From the IMG/VR virus record IMGVR_UViG_3300042519_001698: a DNA stretch of 64,000 nt; one strand, given 5' to 3'. Positions 13,159 to 50,390 of this stretch are shown in pieces. This DNA is from a virus. Position numbers and translations under genes: made by a program. Each line of letters begins with the position of its first letter. Position 1 is the stretch's first letter. The notes beneath the pieces were generated by a model that made no database searches, was not told the origin of the DNA, and saw only the letters and a program-made list of their open reading frames with translations.

Positions 13159-14175
13159 TTATGACGGTGAATTATATGTACAGTAATCCATACATTCTTG
13201 TATCGTTGCATATATTCCATCAACACAACTAATACATTGTCCATTAGAGCAACAATATGTTTGTTCGGGTTGTTTAATATTATGTGTTAATATACCCTCA
13301 GCGTAGAATAAATCAATATCCTCTACGTCCATTTGGTAAATTGTTACAGTTTCTTCTATTACGTCAACTGAGGTTACTTCAATTTCATTATTATTAATAT
13401 CTAATAAAAATTGACCAACTAAAACGTCTTTTGCTTGAATAAATCTCCATCCTGTCGGATGTTTTACTAAATGTCTATGATATTCAGTTGTTCTTAATAA
13501 GTTATTTATTAAGATTGTTTTATCCGATGGTTTTGCGACTATATTAACTATAGTTGTTTGACTCAAGTTACCAACAATTTCATTCGTATTCCACGTAGTT
13601 AATACTTCATTAGTGTCCGAATCTGATGGTAAACCTTCAATATTAAATGACATTAACACATCACCAACTTGTAATGTTTCAATTAATACTTGTGAACCAT
13701 CCGATAATGTGATATTAGTACCTTCAATAAAACAAACTAATGGATCACAATCATCCTGACAAGCTGCTAAGTTTGAGTATGTACCTCCATATCCTTCTAC
13801 CTCAATACAATTTCCATTAAAGCAATCGTATGTGTAGACAGTTGGTTCAGTAACATTTGTCGTTGGTGTTGGGGTCTGTGTTTGAGTCGGAGTTGGTGTT
13901 TGGGTTGGGGTCTGAGTTATTGCAGGTGCACCATTTAACTGTGTAATAAGATATAAATTTAAACAATCCCCAACATTTGGATTTATCTTAATGTATTGAG
14001 TTCCATCAGGAATTACATTACTTACAAAACCATTTAATAATTCTGTCCTTGTTACATTTGTTTCAAATGCAGTTCCACCACATGAACTATTACTTGATGA
14101 GGTACAAGAGTATAAATCAAATGTCGACATATTTGTCGATACTGTTGATAATGTTATAGTTCCTGATATTGCCAT
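13159..14175 (-). CDS. Putative virion protein: anchor module, Thr-Pro linker, Cys module, Hint domain, Cys module
   Basis: 338 aa with Hint motifs at residues 148-299; located inside the structural block. Confidence 0.85.
   Translation of the reverse strand: MAISGTITLSTVSTNMSTFDLYSCTSSSNSSCGGTAFETNVTRTELLNGFVSNVIPDGTQYIKINPNVGDCLNLYLITQLNGAPAITQTPTQTPTPTQTQTPTPTTNVTEPTVYTYDCFNGNCIEVEGYGGTYSNLAACQDDCDPLVCFIEGTNITLSDGSQVLIETLQVGDVLMSFNIEGLPSDSDTNEVLTTWNTNEIVGNLSQTTIVNIVAKPSDKTILINNLLRTTEYHRHLVKHPTGWRFIQAKDVLVGQFLLDINNNEIEVTSVDVIEETVTIYQMDVEDIDLFYAEGILTHNIKQPEQTYCCSNGQCISCVDGIYATIQECMDYCTYNSPS
13279..13734 (-). other. Hint (intein-like, BIL-type) autoprocessing domain
   Basis: Block A CFIEGTNITLSDG (Cys1), block B TTEYH (TxxH), block F IYQMDVEDIDLFYAEG, block G THN. 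The +1 residue is Ile. No homing endonuclease. Confidence 0.9.
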
Positions 14176-14404
14176 TTTATTTATTTTTTATTTTTTTAAC
14201 TTGGTTGTTCAGATTCTCCACACTCTATCTGAGTTCCAGAACAAGGATCCACTTGAGCTTGACAAAATCCATCAGGTTCTTTACAATAGTATGTATAGGA
14301 AGGTTCTGTACAATCAGCCTGACAAGCCTCTAAGTTTGAGTATGTACCTCCATATCCTTGTACTGCGGTACAATTTCCATTAATACAATCGTATGTGTAA
14401 ACAG
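13747..14404. repeat. Dispersed direct repeat of 95 bp (13747-13841 and 14310-14404) encoding a 4-Cys module
   Basis: Manual alignment: 84/95 identical, no gaps, 30-nt perfect core. Encodes YTYDCxNGNCxxVxGYGGTYSNLxACQxDC in two adjacent genes. Confidence 0.95.
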
Positions 14405-17400
14405 GTTCAGGTGATGGGTCGGGTGGTGGTGGTGTAGTACAACTAATTGTTACTGATTTTGTTTTAACACTATTACTACTGTCATATAATAAAACGTACC
14501 AAGTTCCATTGGCCAAATTATTCCAATAATATGAAATTTCACCAGTTAAATCAATTGGTGTTGACATTCCAGCATTTTGTAAAGAATCACCAATTCTAAC
14601 ACTACTATAAGAATTTGTTCCACCATCAAATGACCCAATACTTATCGTACCCGTTCCTGATCCACCTAAACATCCACCTGTAATGTTAAAATCCAACGCT
14701 GCCGGTGGTGGAGGTGGTGGTTCTACTTCAGGACAAATAGTTATATTTGCAAGTGTTACACTTATTTTATTACCTCCAGGGTCTATTGTTGATGACCCCG
14801 CAATGACATAATATGTTTCGGAACTTCCCTCAACTATATCTCCTGAATCATATGTTCCTTGTTCATACCCTGTCGAATATAAATTAGTACCACCCGCACA
14901 AGGTGCCAATGTGTAATAATATATATCTAACGAACCATCAGTAATTGTTATCTCACTTGAGGTTGATAAGACGGTACCTGAAGCACTTCCACTTCTAAGT
15001 TCTAATTTAAATTTCTCAGTTCCTTCTGTTAATTGGTCTTCAGCCAATGAAAAAGAATATTCCTCACCTGAATATGTTAATGAAATTGTTGATGGGAAGT
15101 TATTTTGGAAATCAGATAAATTAACCGTTCCAGTTGTGCTTAATATTGTTATATAAAGTGTTTGAGGGAACGATATATTTGCTGCGGTCACAGTTGTGGT
15201 AAATGATCCACCTCCATCATCAGAACTACTTGGACTTACACTTATACCATATGATGGTGTTGATGGTGGTGTTGTAGTACATTCTGACCAATCTTGTATT
15301 TGACCAGCTGTTGTTATATATGCAACATATTGGAAAACATTACCTCCACCATAAATTAAAATTGCATAATATTTGTCTCCACCATTAACAACACTACCAC
15401 CTATATTTGCATCATATAACGTATAAATTGTTGACGGTGTTACTGAAGTTATAGCCGGATCACTAACATATAATGATTCTGAACCGTTTTGTGATAATGA
15501 CACATAACCAACGGGTAATCCACTCGGGTTTTCTCCACATGCTGCCGTTTTAATATCAGTTAATGTTGGACCAGATGCTGTTGACCATGCAAATACTCTA
15601 GCCGTTCTATAAACGACTGGTGTTGCTTCCTCACAATCATTAAGTGGTTGTCCATTATCTGGATCTAAAGATCTAGTGATTTGTATTAACTCAGACGACG
15701 ACACTGGTGGTGTATCAATTGCAGGGTCAAATGTGTCAACAATTACATATGTTATATCGGCGTCTCCCCAATAAACTCTGTTACCATATGTAAAATCACT
15801 GGTGTTATATGTAACCGTATATTTTACAATTGTCGGGTCGTCACATCTCTCAACTTTAAAGTATCTATAATAAGTTGTTGGTGTTGGTGTTTGAGTTGGG
15901 GTTTGTGTTTGAGTCGGAGTTGGTGATTGTGTTATAAGTGGAACTGCACTGTACACCGCATTACCTGTCATATAACATGCCAATGTTTGTGTTGGTGTTT
16001 GTGTTTGTGTTTGTGTTGGCGTCTGAGTCTGAGTTGGTGTTTGTGTTGGCGTCTGAGTCTGAGTTGGTGTTTGTGTCGGTGTTTGGGTTTGTGTTGGTGT
16101 TTGTGTTGGAGTTGGGGTTGGAGTTGGGTCAATAGCAATTGCACCGTAACCAACTTTAAATTCAAAAGATTTATCTACAGTACAACTATGTGGACCATAT
16201 TTGTAAGATTTAAATTTAACATACTCATCTCCATCAATTCCACCTACAAATGGTAAAAATTCACATGATATTCTTGGTAATCTTGTTATTGTATTTGTAC
16301 CGCCAGAATGTGTTGTACCTTTAAATCCATTAATACCATCTGTGGTGTAACCCGAATAAAAATTAATATAATTTACAGTATCAATTATCGCCTCTCTCCA
16401 CAATAATCTTAATTTATTATAATCAGGTTCAAAATCATTTGTACCATTTCCTTTATATAATTTAGCACTAAAATTTGTGGTTGTAGTTCCACTTAATAAA
16501 GCATAAGTTGTACCAGTATAACCCTGTATTGCCTCATAATTCTCAGGGTCGAATAATAACTTTTTAGTTAAGGTTGGTGTTGGTGTTGGAACATTTTCAA
16601 AAGATATTATATTCGTATTGTTAGTTGACACACCCATGTATGGTGCATTATATCCATATTCAGAATTAAGTGGTATAGGAATAAAAACAGGGTCGGTTGA
16701 ACCTGAATATGTTATTCCGTCAATTTCAAATATTGGAAAAAATTGTAAATAACCATCGTAATTTAAATCGTCATCTTGACTGAAATAAAATTGGAATTGA
16801 AATATCTCTTCTTGGAAATGTCTATTACCTTCTGCTGGTGTTGGAAATGCCGGTTCTAAAAATTCATATATTTGACAAGGTTTCTTGTATTTGTATTTTG
16901 ACCTTTGAAAAATGTTATTCTCAATTAAATTACCTCCCGTCCATAAACTTGTTGATGGAACGAATTGGTCAATAACACTTGTCCAATAAGGACTCATTTT
17001 TTCAATAAATTCGTTTGCTGAAATGAAATTATATGGTGTATATCCCGTATTATTCACTTGATTCATGTAATCATCATAAATGTCCTGAAGAACAATATAA
17101 TTGTTTTTGTATTTGATTACATTTGAATTTTTAATTGTTTGATTTAAAACTGTATCAAGATATTCTGCAAATGTATATCCCGTTTGAGAGTATAATGTTG
17201 CACTACCAAAGTCAATTCCTAAGTTTCTTGATTGTCTCCATATGTCATAATCAATTGCTCTTGATGCAGATAAATTAACATTTAAATTTTTTCTATTTAA
17301 AATTAATTTAGAATCAGAGGTGGTTGAATTATTAATTTGTTTGTTGTCGATTTTTGAATCTAATTCAAATCCATATCCTAATCCTTGTAAATTTCTAAAA

Positions 17401-19214
17401 CTATCAAAATAATCTTCACCATATGTATAATCTTTTGGTTTAGTTTTAATTGTTTTAGTGTAACCCGTTAATATTGAATTGTCTTTGTCAACAACCATTG
17501 TTGATCTGTGATTCAAAGTTAAATCATACCAACCCGCACCTTTTTGGAAGAATATATCGTCAGTTAAATTAGTTACTTTTCTTGGTAAGTTATTTTCATC
17601 AATCGGATATTCATCTGAACTTAAATTTGTTGTTCCTGTAATAGATTGTGTGTTGTATGTTATACCTGTTGCACTTTCAGTAACACTTGTAACTTGTGTT
17701 GTTACCTTTAAACCATTTATTAAATCGTAAACATCGTTACCTAATACACTTTGTACTTTTGGTACTGAGGATACTTCATAAATGTATTCGTTAATTTTAA
17801 TCATTGGTTCAGGAGCTCCCAAGAATTTTAAAAAGAATTCTAAAGACGCTCTAGTACCTTTTGATTTATAAATGTGTGCTAAATTAACTAATAATCTTCT
17901 ATAGAATTCATGTTCAGCATCAACCAATGTATGTCCGACAGTTAACCCCGCATATTGTGTGTCGGTTCTTGTATACAATGTATCATTCAATGATTTTTCA
18001 TCAAATAGATTAACAGTATCTAAACCTAATGTGTTCGCTAAATTTTTTAATAATAAATCAGGTATGTTATTAATACTATCATAACTTACATTTCTCATGT
18101 ATGCAATGTTATCTATATATTTTTTTACCCTATCAAAACTTTGTCCGTATAATTGAAAAAGGGATTGAACCTTTTGGTCTTCAGTATCAAATTCAAATAA
18201 TTGTGGTGCAGATAAAAATCTAACAACTAAATTGGATTTATAATCGTCAATCTCATCACCAATACCACTTAACCTTTCAATGTATTGTTCATAACCAAGT
18301 CCGACAATCTGAATGTTCCATCCATCTTTAGAAATTGGCCATGTTACATCAAAATTACTAATTTCAGTTTTTGAACCATCTAAACTTGTATTTGGAACTT
18401 TAAATGTTGCAGTATAAATTGGTGAGGATGTTCTATCAATTAATAATGTTTGAATTTCATCTAAATTATTAAAGAATTCTTCAATGATTGAATCTTTTGG
18501 TTTGATAAATGCGTTTACTTCTGCGTTTAAAAGATTACCAAAAGGATTTCCTGTAACGATTAATTTAATTTCATTATCACTATTAGGTTCCGTGTATCCG
18601 ATAATTGGATAAACGTTTCCATCATATTCTATTACATATTTTTTATATGATGAATAAAAATTTCTTAGTGGATTTGAACTTGTTGGTATTGTGTTACTTT
18701 TAGGTTGTTGAATAACAATATCTAAAGGATTGTAAATTATATTCTTATTTACATAAAATGTGGTATTCTTTAAAATTGAATTGTATGAAATGTTTTTAAT
18801 CGTGTTTGCATCAATTCTTGATGGACTATCCTTATCAATTAACATCCCACTAGGAAATCTACTAATAATATCGTTAACCGAAATTTCTAATCTAAGTTTT
18901 AAAGAACCAAATAAAGATTTACCAGCGTCATTAATTCCACCTCTAAATTTTATCTTTTCTTTTTTAATGATGGTACCCATACCATCTTCCGAAACTGTTA
19001 AATCAGTTTCTTCTTTTAAGGTATCTAATGTTAAAAAATCTGAAAATGGTGAAGTCTTGAATTTTTTCGCGTCTCTTTCAGGAATGACTTTATCAAGTGT
19101 AAAGTTTTCATTGGTCAAATTACCTAAGGTTCTTTGATTACCAACTAAACTATCACTAAAAGTTTCAGCTCCCGATGCTGCTTGACTTGGTACAATTCTT
19201 TTAACTACTGCCAT
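14196..19214 (-). CDS. Baseplate wedge-like protein (P2 gpI/T4 gp7-like core) with variable C-terminal adhesin modules
   Basis: RRLLVNLAHIYKSKGTRASLEFFL motif, then a Thr-Pro tract, a Calx-beta-like domain (EDQLTEGTEKF), a SprB-like repeat and Cys modules. Confidence 0.7.
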   Translation of the reverse strand: MAVVKRIVPSQAASGAETFSDSLVGNQRTLGNLTNENFTLDKVIPERDAKKFKTSPFSDFLTLDTLKEETDLTVSEDGMGTIIKKEKIKFRGGINDAGKSLFGSLKLRLEISVNDIISRFPSGMLIDKDSPSRIDANTIKNISYNSILKNTTFYVNKNIIYNPLDIVIQQPKSNTIPTSSNPLRNFYSSYKKYVIEYDGNVYPIIGYTEPNSDNEIKLIVTGNPFGNLLNAEVNAFIKPKDSIIEEFFNNLDEIQTLLIDRTSSPIYTATFKVPNTSLDGSKTEISNFDVTWPISKDGWNIQIVGLGYEQYIERLSGIGDEIDDYKSNLVVRFLSAPQLFEFDTEDQKVQSLFQLYGQSFDRVKKYIDNIAYMRNVSYDSINNIPDLLLKNLANTLGLDTVNLFDEKSLNDTLYTRTDTQYAGLTVGHTLVDAEHEFYRRLLVNLAHIYKSKGTRASLEFFLKFLGAPEPMIKINEYIYEVSSVPKVQSVLGNDVYDLINGLKVTTQVTSVTESATGITYNTQSITGTTNLSSDEYPIDENNLPRKVTNLTDDIFFQKGAGWYDLTLNHRSTMVVDKDNSILTGYTKTIKTKPKDYTYGEDYFDSFRNLQGLGYGFELDSKIDNKQINNSTTSDSKLILNRKNLNVNLSASRAIDYDIWRQSRNLGIDFGSATLYSQTGYTFAEYLDTVLNQTIKNSNVIKYKNNYIVLQDIYDDYMNQVNNTGYTPYNFISANEFIEKMSPYWTSVIDQFVPSTSLWTGGNLIENNIFQRSKYKYKKPCQIYEFLEPAFPTPAEGNRHFQEEIFQFQFYFSQDDDLNYDGYLQFFPIFEIDGITYSGSTDPVFIPIPLNSEYGYNAPYMGVSTNNTNIISFENVPTPTPTLTKKLLFDPENYEAIQGYTGTTYALLSGTTTTNFSAKLYKGNGTNDFEPDYNKLRLLWREAIIDTVNYINFYSGYTTDGINGFKGTTHSGGTNTITRLPRISCEFLPFVGGIDGDEYVKFKSYKYGPHSCTVDKSFEFKVGYGAIAIDPTPTPTPTQTPTQTQTPTQTPTQTQTPTQTPTQTQTPTQTQTQTPTQTLACYMTGNAVYSAVPLITQSPTPTQTQTPTQTPTPTTYYRYFKVERCDDPTIVKYTVTYNTSDFTYGNRVYWGDADITYVIVDTFDPAIDTPPVSSSELIQITRSLDPDNGQPLNDCEEATPVVYRTARVFAWSTASGPTLTDIKTAACGENPSGLPVGYVSLSQNGSESLYVSDPAITSVTPSTIYTLYDANIGGSVVNGGDKYYAILIYGGGNVFQYVAYITTAGQIQDWSECTTTPPSTPSYGISVSPSSSDDGGGSFTTTVTAANISFPQTLYITILSTTGTVNLSDFQNNFPSTISLTYSGEEYSFSLAEDQLTEGTEKFKLELRSGSASGTVLSTSSEITITDGSLDIYYYTLAPCAGGTNLYSTGYEQGTYDSGDIVEGSSETYYVIAGSSTIDPGGNKISVTLANITICPEVEPPPPPPAALDFNITGGCLGGSGTGTISIGSFDGGTNSYSSVRIGDSLQNAGMSTPIDLTGEISYYWNNLANGTWYVLLYDSSNSVKTKSVTISCTTPPPPDPSPEPVYTYDCINGNCTAVQGYGGTYSNLEACQADCTEPSYTYYCKEPDGFCQAQVDPCSGTQIECGESEQPS
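15873..16127 (-). repeat. Thr-Pro-Thr-Gln low-complexity coding repeat
   Basis: (TPTQ/TQTP)n with degenerate third codon positions, interrupted once by LACYMTGNAVYSAVPLI. Confidence 0.9.
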
Positions 19215-21655: not shown

Positions 21656-24600
21656 TTATGGCGTTGGTCCACCACCACATAATCCATAATGTGCTATTGT
21701 TCCACCCAGAATTCTTCCGTACACTGATCCATCGGTGTAATAACCTACACCCGAATAAATTGTATCACCTGAACCGTCACTAAACGCTTGATATCCATCT
21801 GTAAATCCTCCCGTTTCTGTATATATTGTAATATCCATCATTGCTCCATTAGCAAAGTTGTAACATGCACTACCAAAATCTTCAGTTCCGCCAATTTGAC
21901 CTGAACGTAAATAAACCGGATATAATGTTAATGGAGGTGCTGGACAAGTTACTTGATGTTCAATCGTAGTGGTAACACATCCGTTTGCATCTGTCACATG
22001 TAACCAATAATAACCACAAGCTAATCCTGTGACACTAATAGACGGTGAACCTGATGTTACATCTGTGTATATTGCGACTAAGTTATCAGTTGGGTAATCA
22101 TTATATGGTGATGCACTATCTTTATATAACCTATATGTTTTATTCCAAACCCCACCACTAGATGATATTGTTAATGAACCATTATCTCCACTTGTTGCTC
22201 CCACAACACTAGTTATTGATGACGATTGTGATGATGGTTGCGAAATATATTGTGGATATGAAATAGTACAACCTAAGGTGTCTCTAACAGTTATTGAGTA
22301 ATCACCAGCGGACAAATTAGAATACGTTTGTGGGAAGGATTCATATGTTGATCCTCCATCAATTGAAACAGTATATGCTCCACTATTACCTCCAAGTGGG
22401 TTAAGTACCGAAATTGATCCCTGTCCTCCATAACATAGTGGATCTACCACATTTATTGTACAACTTGGTGCTGTTTTTCTAAAATCAACAGATACACCTG
22501 TTGTAGAAACCGAACCATTACCATCTTTCGCTTCAAAATAATATAAAGCAGTACCTAAATTAAAGAACGTAACTTGTGATTGCCAATTTCCACCATCAAC
22601 ACGATATTCATAACCACTACCCGAACCACCAGCCGCAGATAATGTTACACTAGCGTTTGTACTATTATAACATGTTGGGTAATTTAATAAGGTTAGTGAA
22701 ACCGTAACACCAGCTAATGAATTACTAGGTGTTTGTGTCTGAGTCGGTGTCTGTGTCTGTGTTGGTGTATTTGTTGGTGTTTGAGTTGGGCAAGTAACAC
22801 AATCTCCGTAAGCTAATCCGTAAAACTCTCCCCCATTATAAGGTAATCCTATAGAAAATTCTCTAACAATTTCACTTCCCTGTAATTTTAACCAAACATA
22901 GTTATTACCGTTTGGACCAAATGTCATATTAATTAAACTACTACTAAGTTTAATGTTTGCATCACAGAAACTTGAACCAGCAGTTCTACTATTGGTAATA
23001 GTAAATGTATCCACAGGAATTGCTCCGGTTTGATAACATACTTCACTCATACTATTAACACTATACGATGCAACAAATGTTCCGAAAGGTGTTGGTGTTG
23101 GGGTCCTTGTTGGTGTTGGTGTTTGAGTCCGTGTTGGTGTTTGAGTCGGTGTACCTGTTTGACTAGGTGTTTGTGTCTGACTAGGTGTCTGAGTCTGAGT
23201 CGGAGTTTGACTAGGTGTTTGAGTTTGTGTTGGTGTCTGAGTCTGAGTTGGTGTTTGAGTAGGTGTACCAGTCTGAGTAGGTGTTGGGGTTTGAGTAGGT
23301 GTTGGGGTTTGAGTTGGTGTACCTGTTTGAGTTTGTGTTGGTGTGTTAGTTGGTGTTGCACTAGGTGCTATGGTTACAACATTGATGTTGAAGTTACAAT
23401 TGATTGTAGGTGTAGGTGTTTGTGTTAAAGTTTGAGTTGGCGTTGGCGTTTGTGTTTCAGTTTGTGTAGGGGTTTGTGTTGGCGTTTGAGTAGGTGTCTC
23501 AGTTTGTGTCTGAGTTTGAGTTTGTGTTGGTGTATTAGTTGGCGTTTCTGTGTTAGTCGGCGTCTGAGTCTGAGTAGGTGTAATTGTATTAGTAGGTGTG
23601 TTAGTTGGAGTTGCACTAGGTTCTATGGTCACAACACTAATGTTGAAATCACAATTAATTGTTGGTGTTGGGGTCTGTGTTGGTGTTTGTGTAGGTGTAC
23701 CTGTTGGTGTCTCAGTTTGTGTAGGAGTTGGGGTTGGAGTTTCAGTCTGAGTCGGTGTTTGTGTCTGAGTCGGAGTTTGAGTCGGCGTTTCAGTTTGTGT
23801 TGGTGTATTAGTTTGTGTAGGTGTGTTAGTTGGTGTTGATGATGGTTCAATTGTAATTACGTTAATATTGAACTCACAATTGATTGTTGGAGTAGGTGTT
23901 TGGGTTGGTGTTTGTGTTGGTGTGTTAGTCGGAGTTTCAGTATTGGTTGGTGTAGGTGTTGGGGTCTCAGTTTGAGTTGGTGTTTGAGTTGGTGTTTCTG
24001 TATTAGTAGGTGTAGGTGTTGGGGTAGGTAATGTATAACAATCACCATAATTTAATACTCTAATTGAAGCAATAAGATATTCATGTTCTACTGATTGAGA
24101 ACTCATTAATGTACCATGTACTATTGGTGTTGTTAATGTGAAAATCCCCTCTGAAACAAATTCATATTGTATTATATTATCAGTATTCTCATATTGAATA
24201 TAACCATACGAATCAACTATGTATAAAGTATTTTCATAATAATCACAATCGATTGGTGCGATACATCCAATAAAATCACCACCACTAAATGTTATTTTTT
24301 CATATGGATTGGTTGATGTTATTGATATTGTTACATCGGTTACATCATTATATTGAAGTAATGGTAATTCTACAAATTTTTCATACTCCTGAGATAACAT
24401 TGTTACGGTTGTGGATGAATATAAACCACTAGCGATGTAAATGTTTGCGGTAAATATTACACCAACAAAGGTTGCGGTTGGGTCACCATTACCATTTCTT
24501 GTTTTAAAATTAACACCATTTGAACTTATCGTACTACATATTTCTTCATAATCAATGTAAACAGTATGTGGTCTATTATATTTAAAAATTGTACTCTCAA

Positions 24601-28171: not shown

Positions 28172-30028
28172 TTATATCGCTTCACCATATATTACAGGTA
28201 ATCCACTTCCACTATCAACTTTACCTGTTGTTGTGAATATCTCACCTGAATTTATAAATCTTGTTATTTCATTTCCATTACAATCTAACCAATTTGCTGT
28301 TGCACTAAATCCATAATTTGCAGAGAATGTAATATCCACACAATCACCTATCACAGCAACCGTTGAATTACATAATGTACCTTCATTTGTTATTGTGAAT
28401 GAAGCAGGATTAAGTAGAACTAATGGAGATTTTATTGTTTCAATAATAACACAATCATAAATTGTTTGTGTTCCAACTGTAGCATATATTGTTTGTTGTC
28501 CCGATACGTTATTGTAAATAATATAACCCGCGTCTGTAACGTTTAATACAACATTTTGTTTATACGTTTCGGTTGTTTCAGATACCGAATCACAAGATAC
28601 TGTTGTTTGACAAGAACTTGTTACAGATAAATCAAATGGTTGGAATAATCCTGTATTTGTTGAGAGTACATATATATCCAACACTTTATTTTCTTTTGAA
28701 CTATAATAACCAACTGTTTTGGTGAATTCATTTAATCCTCCAGTTAATATAAATAATTCACCAACTTTTTCCTCATAATTACCTATAAAAATCTCAGTAG
28801 TATTATTATTAGTTGTTGCACTTACTGTCATTTCGTAGTTACCATATGGTTGATCTAATTCAAATGTGTTTAACATTCTACTTAATCCAGCAGAATTAAT
28901 TGTGTTTACAACCGTACCGGTTCCACAATTAGATCTTCTTGATATACTTAGACTACAATCACCACTTCTTTCAATTAAATAAGAATTTTCAGGATTTGTA
29001 CCTCCATCAAAACTTGAATAGAGTGATGGTTCCTCATTTGAACAGTTGTCTGAACATATTTCATTTTCATAAGTTCCAGCCGATGAATATGTCACGAACT
29101 CTTGTGTTCCCGTTTCACATGGATAATAATATAAATAGATTTTATTATCGGTATTACCACTTATTACATCCAAATCCGCTTGTGATATTACAACATTATA
29201 TGATGTACAACCATTACAATCTCTTGGTGTACTTGTTGGTGTTGGTGTGTGAGTTGGTGTAACGGTATTTGTTGGTGTAACGGTATTTGTTGGTGTAACA
29301 GTTGGTGTAATAGTATTGGTTGGTGTAACGGTATTTGTTGGGGTGTTGGTTGGTGTAATTGTATTAGTCGGCGTTTGTGTAACCGTTGGTGTATTGGTTG
29401 GTGTAACACTATTTGTAGGTGTGTTAGTCGGTGTAACTGTATTCGTTGGTGTGTTAGTTGGCGTTTCAGTATTTGTCGGTGTAACTGTATTTGTTGGGGT
29501 GTTAGTTGGTGTTTCAGTTTGAGTAGGTGTTTGAGTCGGTGTTTCAGTTTGGGTTGGTGTTTGTGTAACCGTAGGGGTATTGGTCGGCGTTTCGGTATTA
29601 GTTGGGGTTTGAGTTTGTGTAGGTGTTTGAGTCGGCGTTTCAGTTTGTGTTGGTGTAACCGTATTTGTTGGTGTAACTGTATTAGTTGGGGTATTTGTTG
29701 GGGTCTCAGTTTGAGTTGGTGTAACCGTAATAGTAATAGTAGGTGTTATTGTAACTGTTGGTGTAACCGTTGGTGTTTGAGTTGGTAACATACTTACAAA
29801 ATCAAATGAACAATTTTCTTTTGTATTATGTAATGTTATTAACGTTGTCTCTATTGGTACCGAAAGTAAAACTCCTGAATCTGTTGTTAAATCTGAATAT
29901 GAAACATTTATTGCGTCACTTTCAGTATATACCAAGGTGGCGTAATTAGTACTTACACCATCGTAGTGGATGTTGTAAGGACCTTGTGATGTCCCCGTGG
30001 TAATTTTTACATAAAAGTATCTATTCAT
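28172..30028 (-). CDS. Modular virion protein: anchor module, Thr-Pro tract, Cys-rich modules
   Basis: 618 aa; [15 protein letters not shown]-terminus, ~185 aa TPT(N/Q/V) tract, then several Cys pairs. Confidence 0.75.
29225..29785 (-). repeat. Thr-Pro-Thr-(Asn/Val/Gln/Glu) coding repeat
   Basis: Read directly from the translation. Confidence 0.9.
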
Positions 30029-30036
30029 TTCTTATT

Positions 30037-30044
30037 TATAAATA
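30037..30044 (-). promoter_or_regulatory. TATTTATA putative late-promoter motif
   Basis: 8 nt upstream of the ATG at 30028; palindromic form. Confidence 0.55.
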
Positions 30045-30056
30045 TCATTTTTATTT

Positions 30057-33000
30057 TTATGGACAAATTGTTATTGCATTTACACGTCCTTCGTCATATC
30101 CATTTACGGGTTCACTATATTGACCAGTTACATTACATGACATTACCGTAGGTGACCCAAGTGTTGCACTTATATATTGCCAATTTGAAGGGGATGGCCA
30201 AGCAATTTCATAGACACTACCATTAACTAATTTTTTATATGTCAAATCTCCAAGTGCGGGTAATGTTCCATTCCCAACAAAATAAAATTCATAACCACTT
30301 TGTGATGCAATACTAATACCTCCACAATAAGTAGTTCCCGGACTGTAACCATAAGAATTTACATTACTTCCAGGGTACACTCTTTTATAAACTACTCCGG
30401 GTGGTGTAGGTTCACTATATGTCCAATCGGTAATATCAGTAATAATACAATCAACAATGGTTACTATTTTAACGTTAGGGTCATTTGAATTAATAAATGA
30501 TGAATCAAATAACCAATACTTACCATTTGTTGCACATTCACAATTTGTAAAATATGGATCATTAAGATATACCCTATTTCCAATTGCAATTGTGGCGATA
30601 TCAACCGTTTCATATCCTGTTCCTTGAGAGGTATAATATTTATACAAATTGTAAACATTACCCGCATTTGTTGTTGTACCTGTATAGAAAATATATTGTT
30701 CACCTAAAACCTCTACACTCCTTATTAATTGATACGTTGTTAAACCAGATGATGGTTTAACACAAGGTCCTATTGGAGTTGGTGTAACTGTATTTGTTAG
30801 TGTTGGGGTTGGGGTTGGTATTGAATATGTTTCCGTGAAAGTTACATCCACCACACAATCTAATGTTGGTGTTGGGGTTGGTATAGAGAAAACTTCCGTG
30901 AAAGTTACATCCACCACACAATCTAATGTTGGTGTTGGTGTATTGGTTTGTGTTGGTGTATTGGTTGGTGTACCGGTTTGAGTTTGTGTTGGGGTTGGGG
31001 TTGTCGTTTCGGTATTAGTCGGTGATTGAATTGGTGTACCTGTTTGAGTTTGAGTGGGCGTTTGAGTTGGTGTAACCGTATTGGTAGGTGTAACTGTATT
31101 GGTCGGCGTGTTAGTTGGCGTTTCAGTATTGGTAGGTGTTGGTGTATTAGTCGGCGTCTCGGTGTTAGTCGGCGTAACAGTATTAGTCGGAGTTTGAGTC
31201 GGAGTTTCTGTGTTAGTTTGGGTTGGAGTCTGTGTTGGTGTTTCTGTGTTAGTCGGCGTGTTAGTCGGTGTTTCAGTATTTGTCGGTGTTGGCGTCTGAG
31301 TTGGCGTTTCAGTATTAGTAGGTGTATTAGTCGGTGTTTCAGTATTTGTCGGTGTAGGTGTTTGAGTTGAAGTTTCGGTATTGGTCGGCGTGTTAGTCGG
31401 CGTTTCAGTCTGAGTCTGAGTCGGAGTTTGAGTTGGAGTTTCGGTATTAGTAGGTGTCTGAGTTGGCGTCTCAGTTTGAGTTTGAGTAGGTGTTTGAGTT
31501 GGTGTTTCTGTGTTAGTTGGCGTAACTGTATTAGTCGGCGTGTTAGTCGGTGTTTCGGTATTAGTAGGTGTAGGAGTATTGGTTGGCGTTTCAGTTTGTG
31601 TTGGGGTGTTAGTTGGCGTTTCGGTGTTAGTCGGTGTAACCGTATTAGTCGGTGTAACAGTCTGAGTTGGAGTCTGAGTTGGTGTTTCTGTGTTAGTTGG
31701 CGTTGGAGTCTGAGTCGGAGTTTCAGTCTGACTAGGAGTATTGGTTGGTGTTTCGGTATTGGTAGGTGTAGGAGTATTGGTCGGCGTTTCGGTATTAGTA
31801 GGTGTAACTGTGTTAGTAGGTGTTTGTGTAACCGTAGGTGTGTTGGTTGGGGTCTCAGTTTGGGTTGGTGTTGGAGTCTGAGTCGGAGTTTCAGTATTAG
31901 TAGGGGTGTTGGTTGGTGTTTCAGTATTAGTTGGAGTTGGTGTATTGGTTGGTGTCTCTGTGTTAGTTTGAGTTGGCGTAGGTGTTTGTGTTTCAGTCTG
32001 AGTTGGGGTCTGAGTCGGCGTTTCGGTTGGGGTCTCAGTATTTGTAGGTGTAGGAGTATTAGTCGGCGTTTCGGTATTGGTTGGAGTTTGAGTTGGTGTT
32101 TCAGTTTGTGTAGGCGTAGGTGTCTGAGTCGGCGTTTCAGTATTTGTTGGTGTAGGTGTCTGAGTCGGCGTTTCAGTTGGTGTTTCAGTATTAGTTGGGG
32201 TTGGTGTATTGGTTGGAGTTTCAGTATTAGTAGGCGTTTGAGTTGGTGTCTCACTTGGTGTATTAGTAGGCGTTTGGGTCGGTGTTTCAGTATTGGTTGG
32301 TGTAACCGTATTAGTAGGCGTTTGAGTTGGTGTCTCGGTATTAGTTGGTGTCTGAGTTGGTGTGTTGGTCGGTGTAATAGTATTGGTCGGCGTTTGTGTA
32401 GGTGTACCTGTTGGGGTCCTTGATGGTTCTATCGACTGTACCAAAGTTCCAGTTGGTGTATGGGTTGGTGTAACGGTTGGTGTTTGTGTATTAGTAGGGG
32501 TATTCGTTGGTGTTTGTGTATTAGTAGGGGTATTTGTCGGCGTAACTGTATTAGTCGGTGTCTGACTAGGTGTAACAGTCTGAGTTGGAGTCTGAGTTGG
32601 TGTGGATGTATTGGTTGGTGTAGGTGTAGGTGTAGCCTCATTTGTTGGAGTCTGAGTTGGTGTTGGAGTTGGAGTTTCACAATTAACTGTCAATACTTTT
32701 ACAACTCTATCCGTTGACCATGGTGCAATAAATTGTATTTCAATATTTTGTTCCCCTTGAGTACTAAATTGTTTTGTTACCGAACCATTTGATTCAATTG
32801 AATTACTTGTTCCATCTCCCCAATGAATTGTAAATTCAGCATCAGCTAAAACACTAAGAGAACCATAATTTGTTGTGTTATAAACCGTAACAACATCACA
32901 CTCCACATCGTAAGCAAAGTTTGCCGTTATTTTATTTTGTCCAACTTGTCCAATTTTACCGTCAAACGCATACATTTGACCCATCTCATAAGCACTAGAC

Positions 33001-40627: not shown

Positions 40628-42460
40628 TTAATATGTAGTCGTTCCTAATGTTTTAGTTCTAACTTTGATATCGACATTTGGGAATCTAATTTGGTAAATT
40701 TGGTTAGATTTCATAAAAATAGTCATGTCACTCTGTTGTATCTCTTTGGTACTATCATTTACGTATGATTGTGAAACTTCAGCAGATGAATATTGGCCAC
40801 CGATTTTATTGAAAACTCTAACATCAATTACGTTGATTACACCATTTTCTTGACCAACTTGTCTAATCAAATCACCAACAAATAACGGGTCTCCCATCTT
40901 TCTTTTATCAAATGAGAAGAAATCAATCGTATTGTTAATTGTTGTTTTTATGATATCAGAAGGGTTTTCATTTTTATCAATAATCAAATCAATTTCCAAT
41001 CCTAAGTCTATAACCTCACCATTTGCAATATCTATGTAATCATTTATCATTCTATATTCAGATAGATAATTAATGATATTATTTTTTAATGTGTTAGAAA
41101 CTGTGTCAGTTAAATTACCTTTATCATCATATGATAATATTTTGATTTTAACCTTATTATCTTCTTCCATGACGTTTACCTTAGCCGGTGCTCCGAAAGT
41201 CGATGGCATGACCTCTATTAACGATTTATAGTCATTTAATGTAACCGCCCTATCTTGTGCTGCGAAATTATATGAAATCATATTTCTTAATTCCTCAATT
41301 GTTGGTTGGTCAGCACCACCTACCGCAGGTGTGATATTAGTAACTTTTAAAGATTGTATGACTTGAGTGTTTGTTGAACTAACAGGTCCGTTTACATTGA
41401 ATTCGACAGTATCAATACTGTTTACGACGTTTACACCTACGTTTGAATTTTTACCACCACCAATTCTGTATTTTACGAATAATGTTGTATCTGTTTTTGG
41501 TACTGCACCTAATGATAAATTGTTTAAATAACTCGCTAAATTCACTTTTAATTGACCCGTCATGTAATTATCCAAATTATCTAATGGATTAACAGTCCCA
41601 GAACCAAATATCAATGAGAAATATCCTTCAGGTGTATATTCAGTTATAAACTTATTTGTAACGTCTTTGTAGACTCCAGATTTAAAATTATCCTTATCTG
41701 AAACCGCCGTTGAATCGGGTATAAAAACTCTATTTTGTATTAAACTTTTAACTTCATACCACTTATTTGTGGTTGTTAAAAATTCACTTGGTGTTGGGTT
41801 TGCACCAAATGACGTACCCTCTTTATGTATAATTGAAACAACACCTAAAACATTTTGTTCAGGTAAAAATAACTTCAAGAACGGTTTTTGATCTGTTTGA
41901 TTTATAATTTTTCTATATATTTTACTAACACCGTTAACAACCGCATCTCTTTTTGTGATTGTGTAGGAAACTAAAGTGTTATTTGCATTAAAGTTTGGTA
42001 TTTTAAGTCTATTTGGTTCCCCTTTAGTGTTAAATGGACTAGAGAAATCAATATCCTCTAATGTTTCAAAAACTTGTCCACCACCTGAAACTTGAGCTCC
42101 TGTTTTTAAAATACCCAAATATCTTTCATCTTCCTTGTCTCCTCTAACAGGTACATTTATTGAGAAATCACACAAACAAACCGATGGTCTGTTACCGGGT
42201 ATTTTAAGTCCGTAGGTTTTTGCAATGTGATATAACGATTGTCTTTGTTGAGCAAAGTCCAACATAGTTTCTTGCCAAACCCTATCAATGTGATAATGTA
42301 AGTTATCGGTAACAGCCGCGTTTAAATCTAACAATACAGAATATATTGACGCATCATTGGTGTTTTTAACCAAATCAGGATAATATTGTTTAGTTAGGTT
42401 TACTAATTCCTGTCTTAAACCCGCAAAATCACGGGTTGCATATGATATTTTTTTACTCAT
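40628..42460 (-). CDS. Baseplate wedge subunit (T4 gp6/baseplate J-like)
   Basis: RDFAGLRQEL, AQQRQSL..IAK..G, GGAD..TIEELR, AAQDRAVT..DY. Confidence 0.9.
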   Translation of the reverse strand: MSKKISYATRDFAGLRQELVNLTKQYYPDLVKNTNDASIYSVLLDLNAAVTDNLHYHIDRVWQETMLDFAQQRQSLYHIAKTYGLKIPGNRPSVCLCDFSINVPVRGDKEDERYLGILKTGAQVSGGGQVFETLEDIDFSSPFNTKGEPNRLKIPNFNANNTLVSYTITKRDAVVNGVSKIYRKIINQTDQKPFLKLFLPEQNVLGVVSIIHKEGTSFGANPTPSEFLTTTNKWYEVKSLIQNRVFIPDSTAVSDKDNFKSGVYKDVTNKFITEYTPEGYFSLIFGSGTVNPLDNLDNYMTGQLKVNLASYLNNLSLGAVPKTDTTLFVKYRIGGGKNSNVGVNVVNSIDTVEFNVNGPVSSTNTQVIQSLKVTNITPAVGGADQPTIEELRNMISYNFAAQDRAVTLNDYKSLIEVMPSTFGAPAKVNVMEEDNKVKIKILSYDDKGNLTDTVSNTLKNNIINYLSEYRMINDYIDIANGEVIDLGLEIDLIIDKNENPSDIIKTTINNTIDFFSFDKRKMGDPLFVGDLIRQVGQENGVINVIDVRVFNKIGGQYSSAEVSQSYVNDSTKEIQQSDMTIFMKSNQIYQIRFPNVDIKVRTKTLGTTTY

Positions 42461-42461
42461 C

Positions 42462-42911
42462 TTAAATGTTTAATATTACAAAATCTGAAGTTGAAAATGC
42501 TCCATTAGTTACTGTGTATTCAATTTTTACTTTGGCAGTATATGGTTTGGTTGAATGGTCGGAAACCCTGAATAGTCTTTCATCTTCCATCATGTTAAAT
42601 GTGGTTGTTTCATCGGGGTCATCCTCCGCGGACATGACATTAATTGATGTGATATCTAAATTAGGGATATAGGTTTTTACCGTCTCTCTAATCTCACTTT
42701 CAATCAATCCGAATGTTACCATATCGTTTTGGTCGAAGATAAATTGATATAAACGGGTACCAAAATCAGGTAAGAAATATCTACTACCTTTTCTTGTCAG
42801 TAAAAGATGAATTAGGTTTCCTCTAATCTCTCTTTCTGCCTCTCCTGTCATTTTTAAAAACTTTCCTTCTAAACTATCTCGGAAAGGAAAATCTATACCA
42901 TATGTCGCCAT
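42462..42911 (-). CDS. Baseplate gp25/GPW-like sheath-initiator protein
   Basis: GIDFPF, NLIHLLLTRKGSR...PDFGT.L..FIFDQ, I...P. Confidence 0.92.
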   Translation of the reverse strand: MATYGIDFPFRDSLEGKFLKMTGEAEREIRGNLIHLLLTRKGSRYFLPDFGTRLYQFIFDQNDMVTFGLIESEIRETVKTYIPNLDITSINVMSAEDDPDETTTFNMMEDERLFRVSDHSTKPYTAKVKIEYTVTNGAFSTSDFVILNI

Positions 42912-43047: not shown

Positions 43048-45480
43048 TTAAGAACCACATCCCTCACAATCAAATGGAGAGTCTACTGGTTTTTCCGATG
43101 TCATTACTACCTCAGGTGTTTCTTCACTTATTAAAGAATTATTTTTTGGTACTTCAACATTATTTACTGATGACGTTTGTTCAATTGGTTTTGATGTTGA
43201 CATATCCACACCCAAACCTTTAATTGCATCCACCGCCGCTCTTGTTCTTAAATAATACATACCCGTTTTTAACCCCAATTTCCAACCAAATAAATGTGCG
43301 GCTAATAATTTGGGTTTGGTAGCGTTATCCACAAATAAATTCAATGATTGTGACTGATCAATAAAAACACTTCTATTGGCTGCCATTTGTAAAATTCTCT
43401 TTTGTGACATTTCCCAAACGGTCTTATATACTTCCTTCATTTCTGTAGGAATTTCAGGTATGTTTTGAACTGAACCATTTTCCATGATTAGTTTATTTTT
43501 AATACCTTCATTCCATAAACCAATTTTTATTAAATCATAAACCAAGTGTTTATTAATCATAATAAATTCACCACTTAATGTTCTACGAGAATATAAGTTA
43601 GTTGTAAACGGTTCAAACGCTTCATTATTACCTAAAATTTGTGCAGTCGATGCAGTTGGCATTGGTGCAACTAATAATGAATTTCTAACACCATTTGTTT
43701 TAATTTCTTTTCTTAAAGATTTCCAATCCCAACGACCTGATAAATCTGAATCTTTTTTACCCCACATTTCATATTGTAAAATACCCTTTTCAATTGGTGA
43801 ACCTACAATTGTTTCATATGGACCAAATTCTTTCGCTAAATCTTTTGATGAAGTTAATGCCGCAAAATAAATTGTTTCAAAAATATCTGTTTGTAATTTA
43901 TCAGCCATTTCAGATTCAAAAGGTAAAGCCAATTTACACATTACGTCCGCCAAACCTTGAACACCTAAACCAACAGGACGATGTCTAAAGTTTGAACGTT
44001 TAGTTTCTTCGGTTGGGTAGAAGTTTAAATCAATTACATTGTTTAAGTTCTTAACAACTTGATATGTGTATTCATAAAGTAACTCATGATTGAATTCTCC
44101 ATCAAGGATATATTTTGGTAACGCGATTGATGCTAAATTACAAACTGCTTGTTCAGTTGGTGAACTATATTCAATAATTTCTGTACATAAATTTGAAGAT
44201 TTAATAGTACCTAAATTCTTTTGATTTGATTTATAATTCGCTGGGTCCTTGTATAACATGTAAGGTGTTCCCGTTTCAATTTGTGCAGTTAAGATTGCGT
44301 CCATTAATTTTCTTGCCTTAACTACTTTTCTTGCCTTACCATCCTTTTCATATGATTCATATAAACGAGTGAATGCTTTATCTTCAGGACTGTCGTAAGC
44401 GTCGGATAATCCTGGCGCCTCGTCAGGTGAAAATAGGGACCAATCTCCATCACTTTCAACACGTTGCATAAATAAATCGGGAGTCCACATCGCTAAGAAT
44501 AAATCTCTCGCTCTCATTTCTTCCTTACCATGATTCTTTCTTAAATCAATAAAATCAAAAATATCTGAATGCCAAGGTTCAAGATAAATAGCAAAAGAAC
44601 CTTTACGTTTACCACCTTGATTAATCCATCGAGCAACCTCATTGTATGTTTTTAACATTGGTAACAGACCATCTGAAAGACCTCCTGTTCCTTTTATATA
44701 AGAACCTTTGGCTCTAACATCATGAACGTGTAAACCAATTCCACCAGCCCATTTAGAAATCTTAGCCACATCTTTGATTGTATCAAACAACCCATCAATA
44801 TCATCACCTTTATTTCCAATTAAAAAACAAGATGACATTTGAGCTCGTTTTGTGCCGGCATTAAACAGCGTTGGGGTTGCATGTGTGTAATAATGTTGGG
44901 ATAAGTCATCATAAATACGAATCGCAGTTCCAACATCACCTTTACAAATACCTACCGCGACTCTCATATACATGTATTGTGGTCTTTCAATAATACGTTC
45001 ACCTATCTTTAATAGATATGAACGTTCTAATGTTTTAAAACCAAAATAATCGAAATCCAAATCTCTTTCTTGGTGAATTGAACCGTCAAGTGATTCTTTA
45101 TTGTTCATGACAAACTCATAAACTCCTTCATCAATTAAAGAAGATTCTTTACCTGTTTTTGGTTCAATAAAAGAATATAGTTCTTTAATACATTGTGAAA
45201 ATTTCTTATGAGTTGTTTTATGTAAATTAGAAACGGCAAGTCTTCCTGCTAATTTTGAATAATCAGGATGTGTTGTGGCCATCGCCGCCGCAGTTTCTGC
45301 AGCAAGAACATCTAATTCAGTTGTAGAAATTCCATCATATATTCCTTGTGTAACTTTTAAAGTAACGTAGGTTGGGTCTATGTATTCTAAATTTAAATCA
45401 CTACAAAATACACTTATTCTTCTTGTAATCTTATCGTATCTCATCTCCTCTAAGGAACCGTCTCTTTTTTTTACTTTCAT
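43048..45480 (-). CDS. nrdA: Ribonucleotide reductase class Ia alpha subunit
   Basis: N-terminal ATP cone (VKKRDG), ATPTLFN, SSCFL, SSNLCTEI, APMPTAST, YYLR and C-terminal CEGC. Confidence 0.98.
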   Translation of the reverse strand: MKVKKRDGSLEEMRYDKITRRISVFCSDLNLEYIDPTYVTLKVTQGIYDGISTTELDVLAAETAAAMATTHPDYSKLAGRLAVSNLHKTTHKKFSQCIKELYSFIEPKTGKESSLIDEGVYEFVMNNKESLDGSIHQERDLDFDYFGFKTLERSYLLKIGERIIERPQYMYMRVAVGICKGDVGTAIRIYDDLSQHYYTHATPTLFNAGTKRAQMSSCFLIGNKGDDIDGLFDTIKDVAKISKWAGGIGLHVHDVRAKGSYIKGTGGLSDGLLPMLKTYNEVARWINQGGKRKGSFAIYLEPWHSDIFDFIDLRKNHGKEEMRARDLFLAMWTPDLFMQRVESDGDWSLFSPDEAPGLSDAYDSPEDKAFTRLYESYEKDGKARKVVKARKLMDAILTAQIETGTPYMLYKDPANYKSNQKNLGTIKSSNLCTEIIEYSSPTEQAVCNLASIALPKYILDGEFNHELLYEYTYQVVKNLNNVIDLNFYPTEETKRSNFRHRPVGLGVQGLADVMCKLALPFESEMADKLQTDIFETIYFAALTSSKDLAKEFGPYETIVGSPIEKGILQYEMWGKKDSDLSGRWDWKSLRKEIKTNGVRNSLLVAPMPTASTAQILGNNEAFEPFTTNLYSRRTLSGEFIMINKHLVYDLIKIGLWNEGIKNKLIMENGSVQNIPEIPTEMKEVYKTVWEMSQKRILQMAANRSVFIDQSQSLNLFVDNATKPKLLAAHLFGWKLGLKTGMYYLRTRAAVDAIKGLGVDMSTSKPIEQTSSVNNVEVPKNNSLISEETPEVVMTSEKPVDSPFDCEGCGS

Positions 45481-45495
45481 TTTTATTTTCTAATT

Positions 45496-46473
45496 TTAAA
45501 AATCAACATCACCAAATGCAGAATCTAAATCTTCAGATTCGTTTGTTTTATTCACACCAGCTTTTTGATACTCGGCAACTCTTTTCTCAAAGAAATTTGT
45601 TTTACCTTGTAATGCAATGTTTTGCATAAAATCAAATGGATTCTCTGAGTTATAAACTTTAGATACTCCTAAGGCAATCAATAATCTATCAGTTACAAAT
45701 TCAAGATATTGTGACATTAAATCTGAGTTCATACCGATTAAACGAACTGGTAATGCCTCAAGTATAAATTCTTTTTCAATCTCTAAAGCCCCACATATAA
45801 TTTCTTTAATTCTTTCAGGTTTTACTTTATTTTGAATATGTTGATTATAGATATGACATGCAAAATCACAATGCATACCTTCATCACGAGATATCAATTC
45901 ATTTGAAAATGTAAGTCCGGGTAATAACCCTCTTTTCTTTAACCAAAAAATTGAACAGAATGAACCTGAAAAGAAGATACCTTCAACCGCAGCAAATGCA
46001 ATTAATCTATCAACAAACGACTCTGAATTAATCCATTTTAATGCCCAATCAGCTTTCTTTTTAACAGCAGGAATTGTGTCGATAGCATTGAATAAGAAAT
46101 GTTGTTCATCTTTGTCTTTTACCAAAGTGTCAATTAAAAGTGAATATGTTTCACTATGGATGTTCTCCATCATAATTTGAAATCCGTAGAAAAACTTAGC
46201 TTCAGTATATTGAACTTCGTTTAAGAAGTTTATTGCCAAATTTTCATTTACGATTCCGTCAGATGCTGCGAAAAATGCCAATACATGTTTTACGAAATGT
46301 TGTTCGTCAGCATTTAGTTTATTTTCCCAATCAGAAACATCTTGTCCTAAATCAATTTCTTCAGCTGTCCAAAAAGACGCTTCAGATTGTTTATAGAACT
46401 TCCATAGGTCATGGTGTTCGATAGGGAAAACGACAAATCTCCCTGGATTGTCTTGTAATATTTTTTCAGTCAT
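45496..46473 (-). CDS. nrdB: Ribonucleotide reductase class Ia beta subunit
   Basis: [46 protein letters not shown]. Confidence 0.98.
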
Positions 46474-46484
46474 TTTGATTTTTT

Positions 46485-47867: not shown

Positions 47868-47881
47868 TTTATATATATATT

Positions 47882-48328
47882 TTATAGTTCATAATTCAAA
47901 TACGTTGTCTCCAATTCATCAGATGATAAAATGTCAGTTAAATCTGTCAAAATTCTCTTAAGTCTTGGTCGAACATCCACCGTGTATCTAACCTTTGGAT
48001 GGTAGTAAAATGCTGGGAATATTCTTTGAATAAATACATCCTCATTCAACTTAATTTCCAATAAAAAGTGTTCTTTATCCTTCTCATTTGAATCTTCCAC
48101 ATAGTCAGAAGACAAGATAAAATTTGCATTCTCACATAGATAATTGGAACTTTTTATTTTTAAATCTTCAGCAATATCATCACAAATATTTTTCACATAG
48201 TAGTGTAAGTCCATTGATCTTCTAGATGGGTCATAGTGGTCTTTAACGTTAAAAAATCTTTGGACAATGATGTTTCCCTCTAATGATAATAGGAATTCGA
48301 ATTTAGTAATGTTTTCTTGATTACTCAT
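47882..48328 (-). CDS. Hypothetical protein in the replication cluster
   Basis: 148 aa ORF, coupled to its neighbours. Confidence 0.75.
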   Translation of the reverse strand: MSNQENITKFEFLLSLEGNIIVQRFFNVKDHYDPSRRSMDLHYYVKNICDDIAEDLKIKSSNYLCENANFILSSDYVEDSNEKDKEHFLLEIKLNEDVFIQRIFPAFYYHPKVRYTVDVRPRLKRILTDLTDILSSDELETTYLNYEL

Positions 48329-49340: not shown

Positions 49341-49352
49341 TAATAAATTTTA

Positions 49353-50333: not shown

Positions 50334-50351
50334 GTTGTTGTTTTTTAAAAT

Positions 50352-50381
50352 GATGTTCCCGACATTGGTGTCGGGAACATC
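50352..50381 (-). terminator. Perfect 13-bp hairpin after the SSB gene (terminator or processing site)
   Basis: GATGTTCCCGACA-CCAA-TGTCGGGAACATC followed by only a short AUUUU. Confidence 0.6.
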
Positions 50382-50390
50382 TTAAATTAA

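Follow-up and report, generated by a model that had tools for sequence, protein, structure and literature searches.

We analysed a stretch of 64,000 nucleotides from a virus (IMG/VR record IMGVR_UViG_3300042519_001698; hereafter, the window), and in it a gene on the minus strand (13159-14175) whose product, of 338 amino acids (aa), carries an internal Hint domain. We describe this product as a modular, putative fibre- or whisker-like protein of the virion surface: its reading frame is open, it has 83 homologues, and it occupies the position held by anchor-only alleles in collinear phage contigs. The layout proposed in the original prediction for this DNA (anchor, Thr-Pro linker, four-Cys module, Hint, six-Cys tail) matches the 338-aa frame throughout.

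The protein starts with an FN3/Ig-like beta-sandwich (residues 1-85; 13921-14175), modelled by AlphaFold2 at a predicted local distance difference test (pLDDT) of 86.8 and resembling FN3-like domains in VIA-align (Z ~6). This domain is 59-81% identical among proteins with unrelated C-terminal parts, and presumably is the end by which the protein attaches to the virion. A linker rich in Thr and Pro follows (residues 86-110; 13846-13920), with a pLDDT below 50 over residues 83-111; TPTQ-type tracts like those of the linker recur in several giant genes nearby. The last folded unit of the N-extein is a cysteine module that we call type 1, copy A (residues 111-143; 13747-13845; C-x4-C-x15-C-x3-C), found by regular expression and tblastn. 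It is separated from the Hint by an Asp-Pro-Leu-Val junction (13735-13746), defined by comparison with homologues and occupying positions -4 to -1 of the Hint.

The Hint domain was delimited by profile, fold and conservation to residues 148-299 (13279-13734), that is, 152 aa, with Cys148 in block A, Thr230 and His233 in block B (T230-E-Y-H233), and His298-Asn299 in block G. It is followed by Ile300 (+1, non-nucleophilic) and Lys301 (+2), identified in the homologue alignment (13273-13278). Ile300 is the first residue of a 39-aa stretch with six Cys (residues 300-338), whose remainder consists of a short linker and a second type-1 module, copy B (13162-13272; core at 13180-13257), supported by regular expression, tblastn and the model. 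The AlphaFold2 model, built from 52 homologues, has a mean pLDDT of 79.9; the Hint is mostly above 90, the linker is disordered (~40), and a beta-hairpin and a short helix make up each Cys module.

A profile of the family matched Tetrahymena BIL2, a bacterial intein-like (BIL) domain, at E 1e-8 among PDB sequences (6Y75/6TMM), with further matches to the C. thermocellum BIL domain (2LWY) and to two inteins, archaeal and yeast (Pho RadA and VMA). When the AlphaFold2 model was searched with Foldseek, BIL2 was again at the top (E 2.8e-10), with 2LWY (TM score 0.84, root-mean-square deviation 2.1 Å), followed by about 50 inteins and Hedgehog; the Hint also matched phrog_38766 (7e-9). From these profiles and this predicted fold, the domain is a genuine Hint whose nearest structural relatives are the two solved BIL domains. 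Its sequence makes it a type-A BIL-like, PT-HINT-related domain, for which autocatalytic cleavage or splicing is predicted.

Like type-A BILs (C. thermocellum BIL4, 2LWY; PT-HINT, PF07591), the window Hint is about 150 aa long, lacks an endonuclease, has Cys1, TxxH, His-Asn and a non-nucleophilic +1 residue, and is placed in a variable region of a surface or secreted protein. Unlike them, it belongs to a protein of a phage virion module and not to a bacterial secreted protein or toxin, falls below the Pfam threshold, has a conserved Lys at +2, and is flanked by tiny Cys-stabilised modules instead of a toxin domain. BIL2, from the BUBL polyubiquitin-like locus of Tetrahymena thermophila, is the best match in sequence and fold, and also lies between two small folded modules; it is, however, eukaryotic, has ubiquitin-like exteins and shares ~23% identity with the window Hint. 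In BIL2 a Lys amine takes the place of the +1 Cys/Ser/Thr (PMC8616854), and Lys301 is a candidate for this nucleophile role in the window protein.

Conservation of the Hint domain and its catalytic residues

The 83 homologues of the 338-aa protein come from a word-indexed search, and 55 of them have the Hint. Cys1 and Thr-His-Asn are invariant among these 55 and, in the alignment (52 sequences), so are Cys148, Thr230, His233 and His298-Asn299. The residue at -1 is Pro, Gly, Ser or Val, while +1 is I, L, V, A, R, Y, Q or K and never Cys, Ser or Thr; at +2, Lys is conserved in at least 90% of the aligned homologues. The Hint had been claimed to be BIL-like, and this is confirmed by an N-terminal Cys, TxxH, a C-terminal His-Asn and a non-nucleophilic +1 residue in 55/55 homologues, by the absence of an endonuclease, and by closest folds that are BIL domains. 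Conservation of the catalytic residues had been chosen beforehand as a check on the claim of autoprocessing; they are kept in the homologues, which leaves the claim unrefuted.

Mean identity to the 338-aa protein is 61% for the Hint, 48% for module A, 34% for the C-extein and 23% for the N-terminal domain. For the one pair with DNA (contigs L003 and L007), the ratio of nonsynonymous to synonymous substitution rates (dN/dS) is 0.08 in the Hint and ~0.3 in both exteins. The Hint is under purifying selection. It is also mosaic in its associations: in P0003 the N-terminal domain is 36% identical to that of the window protein yet the Hint is 93% identical, and in P0005 a Hint that is 86% identical leads into another type of Cys module.

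Cysteine modules, Hint-free counterparts and terminal forms

The Cys modules of these proteins are of two types, type 1 (C-x4-C-x13/15-C-x3/4-C) and type 2 (C-x7-C-x6-C-x6-C). Copies A and B both fit type 1, in line with the proposal that the two modules flanking the Hint are of one family. One type or the other follows the Hint in 50/55 homologues (type 2 in P0005-7, P0025-27, P0029-32, P0034 and P0050), and modules kept downstream so consistently are therefore functional. A Cys module is also present upstream of the Hint in the 338-aa protein and most of its clade, and upstream only in the closest relatives with a terminal Hint (P0051, P0086, P0087 and P0090). The type-1 module gave nothing significant against PDB sequences (best E 0.07), and no known fold or family was found for the modules.

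The adjoining gene on the minus strand (14196-19214) encodes a 1672-aa structural protein with a weak match to gp7 domain V, and with SprB/cadherin-type domains in its homologues. Its C-terminus (~70 aa; 14199-14408, minus strand; regular expression and tblastn) consists of a type-1 module, four residues and a type-2 module, without a Hint. Module A and the type-1 module of this neighbour share 80% aa identity over 31 aa, and 90 of 104 nucleotides. The neighbour had been suspected to be a Hint-free version of the arrangement, and it does end module-module directly, its first module being of the same four-Cys type. Giant neighbours thus end without a Hint in two ways: type 1-type 2 in the window, which is the exact Hint-free counterpart of the type 1-Hint-type 2 proteins (P0005 and others), and polyGly-type 2 in L003, L004 and L007, which we likewise take as the exact Hint-free counterpart of polyGly-Hint-type 1 (P0036-49). 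The type-2 modules lie at the extreme C-termini (window 14208-14291; L003 9845-9934; L004 9845-9934; L007 ~2080-2184), and in the last three directly after a poly-Gly run, mirroring the polyGly-Hint-module proteins. A region search for other proteins with the module-module end of the window neighbour gave nothing at E<=0.01, and a viral-contig scan with the 74-aa neighbour end gave no match; a profile of the type-1 module found one further contig only, from the same phage group.

An exhaustive phmmer search with the Hint alone yielded at least 1,405 cluster representatives at E<=1e-3, and 363 at E<=1e-10, making this a subfamily of more than 1,000 representatives, mostly on phage tail-type proteins. 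Residues and ends were scored on the best 145 of the 1,405: Cys1 is present in 127/127, His-Asn in 138/145 and a Lys at +1 or +2 in 102/145, and only 1-16 residues come after His-Asn in 133/145 (~92%). With 39 residues and a folded six-Cys module after His-Asn, the 338-aa protein does not have this terminal form, and its clade, with a conserved folded module after the Hint, is an exception in the family. The terminal-Hint proteins match the window Hint at phmmer E-values of 1e-41 to 1e-15; identity is 36-54% for metagenomic terminal Hints and 25-28% for the Erwinia and NCTB copies described below. Terminal Hints resemble the internal copy in their tail-fibre neighbourhood, in the poly-Gly or Pro before Cys1 and in the Lys after His-Asn. 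The N-terminal parts of family members contain fn3, DUF5977, collagen and PKD domains; members match PHROGs for virion structural, major tail and tail-fibre proteins, and their commonest Pfam match is PT-HINT (35/97 representatives at E<=1e-3).

Cultured examples are gp110 of Erwinia phage Y3 ('contains intein domain') and two proteins of Phage NCTB (annotated as 'large intein domain protein'), all adjoining tail-fibre genes. In Erwinia phage vB_EamM_Y3, gp110 (L001 5017-6453) has collagen-like Gly-x-y repeats and a terminal Hint with a 10-residue tail; the Thr at +1 is a canonical nucleophile, unlike the residues found in the window clade. Some metagenomic proteins (P0108, P0174, P0172, P0226 and P0057/P0058/P0093) bear tandem Hints, up to seven complete copies separated by K-G-G, K-C or R-S only, for which simple self-removal is no obvious explanation.

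Peptidase S74 intramolecular chaperones are C-terminal domains of phage fibres and spikes that remove themselves after aiding assembly, a known route of fibre maturation. Their fold is unrelated to that of the Hint, and they act as Ser-Lys dyad proteases, in contrast to the thioester/succinimide chemistry of Hints, and cannot ligate. No description of such Hint chemistry in phage-fibre maturation was found in the literature searched. In Flavobacterium olei (GCA_039749035.1, contig 238432-255655; L008 1-9224) a prophage-like fibre module encodes a 407-aa fn3 protein whose terminal Hint is of this subfamily, and beside it two large proteins with a terminal Peptidase_S74. One fibre cluster contains two different kinds of C-terminal domain with known or predicted self-cleavage, which shows, by analogy, that removable C-terminal domains are used in such modules.

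The original prediction knew of no characterised phage system like this one. None was found in our partial coverage of the literature on this Hint in tail fibres, which returned just terminase and replication inteins and toxin papers, but the subfamily proved widespread at the C-termini of phage tail proteins; the window case is therefore a variant of a recurrent module and not a one-off. The domain class (type-A BIL/PT-HINT) is known, and its presence on phage fibre-type proteins has been annotated in passing in a few genomes. As far as we can tell, what is new is the internal form, with Cys-module exteins, a conserved Lys at +2 and Hint-free counterparts.

Predicted processing and its alternatives

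In the mechanism that we propose, the FN3-like domain would hold the protein on the virion, and the Thr/Pro stalk would bear a variable tip, built by way of a Hint placed exactly between two cysteine-stabilised mini-modules. After translation, Cys148 would turn the Val147-Cys148 peptide bond into a thioester, and Asn299 would cyclise, cutting the Asn299-Ile300 bond. With no side-chain nucleophile at +1, the attack on the thioester would fall to an amine on the released C-terminal fragment. The candidates are the alpha-amine that the cut exposes on Ile300, proposed as the attacking group in type-A BILs, and the epsilon-amine of conserved Lys301, by analogy with Tetrahymena BIL2. The Hint would then leave, and the stalk would end in a module-module Cys cap, the arrangement that the neighbouring gene encodes directly. 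We infer that processing takes place at all, that the flanks are re-joined rather than merely cut, and which amine could act. Type-A BILs form an N-terminal thioester and cut at the C-terminus by Asn cyclisation. Splicing by them is possible through attack of the freed amine on that thioester (PMC4031507, PMC7664689), and BIL2 ligates its N-extein to the epsilon-amine of a Lys (PMC8616854).

That an active, self-removing Hint re-joins its flanks into a Cys-capped tip is a tentative prediction from sequence, which we place somewhat short of even. Re-joining is probably the outcome to favour, with cleavage without joining nearly as likely. We favour it because a conserved, functional module lies downstream of the Hint in a protein anchored by its N-terminus, so that Cys modules after the Hint would be lost from the virion unless ligated or held tightly, and because the product architecture exists natively in the neighbouring gene. 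Moreover, family members retain His-Asn, and a stub with a Lys, even where only 1-16 residues follow, which is hard to explain in a domain that is itself discarded unless the stub helps to resolve the thioester.

Several observations weigh on the other side. Type-A BILs, in the absence of a +1 nucleophile, give mostly cleavage products and little splicing (PMC4031507, PMC7664689). The closest terminal-Hint relatives have their Cys module upstream, and thus have a Cys cap without ligation, for which cleavage alone would be sufficient. In the survey of homologues with and without the Hint that had been suggested, the Hint-free module-module arrangement was found in the neighbouring gene, but no anchor-module-module allele of the gene itself, the shorter homologues found being an anchor with other tails. 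All Pfam Hint models match the 338-aa protein below their gathering thresholds, the best being PT-HINT (22.2 vs 27.7 bits), although this threshold is passed by P0057, a 37%-identical relative with two tandem Hints (51.5 bits). Lastly, in an unrooted Hint tree (FastTree, 165 rows) the Hints bearing Cys modules split into two groups, among which 13 terminal forms are interspersed; as support is weak and the root is missing, gain and loss of the C-extein are not separable there.

Cleavage at one or both ends without re-joining is possible, if on the doubtful side. The mature protein would then be anchor, stalk and module A up to Val147, and the Hint and the 39-aa Cys peptide would be discarded, remain non-covalently bound, or be freed at lysis as a signal, an inhibitor or a toxin-like molecule. 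This is the dominant outcome for characterised BILs (PMC4031507, PMC7664689), and PT-HINT, the best Pfam family here, is thought to release the C-terminal module of polymorphic toxins. Most relatives have no meaningful C-extein, the closest terminal ones already have a Cys module ahead of the Hint, and the S74 domains of the related prophage follow the same logic of a domain cut off after assembly. Yet cleavage leaves unexplained why His-Asn and Lys+2 are kept when 1-7 residues follow, and a conserved four-Cys module retained downstream in 50/55 homologues would be odd if it were discarded. The same module is found on Hint-free ends and upstream of Hints, where release is impossible, so the comparative data lean away from peptide release; nor is there any immunity-like gene downstream, the next gene encoding a conserved ~670-aa protein.

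Other fates of the thioester seem much less probable. The Hint could be an ATP-independent ligase within the phage particle, in which the conserved Lys resolves the thioester in cis or between subunits; we consider this improbable, but if true, fibre tips would terminate in a Cys-capped knot that is branched through an isopeptide or cross-linked between chains. Virions would thereby mature covalently in a new way, and the whole terminal-Hint family would have its natural substrate-bearing form in the internal copy of the window. Also improbable, and argued by analogy with Hedgehog or BUBL, is a transfer of the Cys148 thioester to an outside nucleophile that would cross-link the tip to a Lys of another subunit or virion protein, or to an amine or hydroxyl of the host surface. 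BIL2, the closest solved homologue, does attach its N-extein to other proteins through their lysines and needs no ATP to do so (PMC8616854), a conserved Lys lies just after His-Asn, and tandem arrays of up to seven Hints are hard to explain by simple self-removal. However, a thioester formed on folding in the cytoplasm would be gone before the phage met its host, and no candidate for the acceptor emerged. The conserved His-Asn speaks for chemistry within one molecule, and no sequence feature is specific to this model, which is pure analogy.

It is also unlikely that the Hint is an inactive structural domain kept in the virion, or the remnant of a parasitic mini-intein whose motifs spare the host protein. 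The sub-threshold Pfam scores would fit, as would a near-identical Hint (93%) on unrelated anchors (36%), which resembles a mobile cassette, and a selfish intein would show conserved splicing residues too. Against this, a homing endonuclease is lacking, and the Hint sits in a hypervariable gene instead of at a conserved, essential site. In 92% of relatives it lies at the extreme C-terminus, where a stop codon would rid the protein of a selfish element at no cost; the family nevertheless numbers at least 1,405 cluster representatives. Moreover, a dN/dS of 0.08 across the whole domain, below that of the exteins, argues for a function of the domain's own.

Three better known systems were considered and rejected. 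Class 1 mini-inteins (gp41-1, Npu/Ssp DnaB, the Mtu RecA splicing domain) share the Hint fold, Cys1, TxxH and His-Asn (Foldseek ranks 6-30), but in the window clade +1 is never Cys, Ser or Thr (55 homologues), making canonical splicing impossible. In addition, no remnant of a homing endonuclease is seen, the Hint is lodged in a hypervariable gene and not at a conserved site of an essential enzyme, and the Hint-free counterpart was found only in a different gene, not as an allele of this one. A polymorphic toxin would have a toxin after the Hint and an immunity gene; here the C-extein is not toxin-sized, consisting of a Cys module that structural proteins without a Hint bear as well, and no neighbour is immunity-like. 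The Hint of Hedgehog/Hog proteins is C-terminal, cleaves only at its N-terminus, lacks His-Asn and has a sterol-recognition region, whereas the window Hint has a conserved His-Asn, a folded C-extein and no extra region after it (1AT0 ranks 30 in Foldseek).

Nearly all members of the subfamily end right after His-Asn, and therefore their sequence cannot separate self-cutting from ligation. The window clade, with its conserved folded C-extein and a Hint-free product architecture next door, is a natural test case for the family, and an experimentally tractable one, in which cleavage, amine splicing or Lys isopeptides could be sought. A self-contained ligating Hint of 152 aa that needs no nucleophile, if true, would be of interest to protein engineers.

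Genomic setting and the hypervariable cassette

Contig L006 is collinear with the window gene for gene, and at the position of the Hint gene it encodes another 338-aa protein, P0053, that shares the N-terminal domain only (78%), its C-terminal domains being unrelated to those of the window protein; in L005 two such anchor genes stand in tandem at this position. Since alleles at the same position share the anchor and differ in the tip, the locus is a hypervariable cassette. Its borders are a conserved 1434-1672-aa protein and the conserved ~670-aa protein, the latter downstream and present in all collinear phages. Between them lie one to several genes (window 13159-14175; L005 10001-11977; L006 10001-11017; L003 10001-14590), whose alleles consist of a constant FN3-like N-terminal domain, a Thr/Pro linker and unrelated C-terminal tips. 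A host-range or decoration protein has just this pattern of constant anchor and variable tip, and a cassette of this type bears on surface diversification in giant phages of Bacteroidota.

Upstream along the minus strand there is a run of giant Thr/Pro-rich proteins, a Baseplate_J protein (40628-42460) and a gp25-like wedge protein (42462-42911). This module, together with alleles that share the N-terminal domain only, supports, by context only, the earlier claim that the Hint gene encodes a virion protein. Replication genes of the T4-like kind lie on either side of the baseplate/fibre module. One such block (43048-51239) abuts the gp25-like and Baseplate_J genes (40628-42911) and encodes the large and small subunits of a class I ribonucleotide reductase, a DnaB-like helicase, a 5'-3' exonuclease, a RecA/UvsX-like protein and a gp32-like protein. 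The gp25-like and Baseplate_J genes and the T4-like replication block place the phage among distant T4-like jumbo myophages. Homologues were found on contigs of 100-324 kb, with one relative in the Flavobacterium olei prophage, and megablast detected no near-identical DNA in cultured phages. The phage is an uncultured T4-like jumbo phage, whose host is probably a member of Flavobacteriia.

Among viral models in BFVD, the nearest to the N-terminal sandwich are paralogues in 'Virus NIOZ-UU157', where five proteins of 77 to 939 aa carry it at 22-30% identity, suggesting a multi-paralogue anchor system shared with a marine relative. In the window, very long Thr-Pro-Thr-Gln/Asn/Glu tracts occur at ~22000-24000 and 29300-33000, in proteins of 2066, 618 and 1083 aa; these regions have a local G+C content of 0.39-0.40 and a strongly positive GC skew, in a window that is otherwise 30% G+C.

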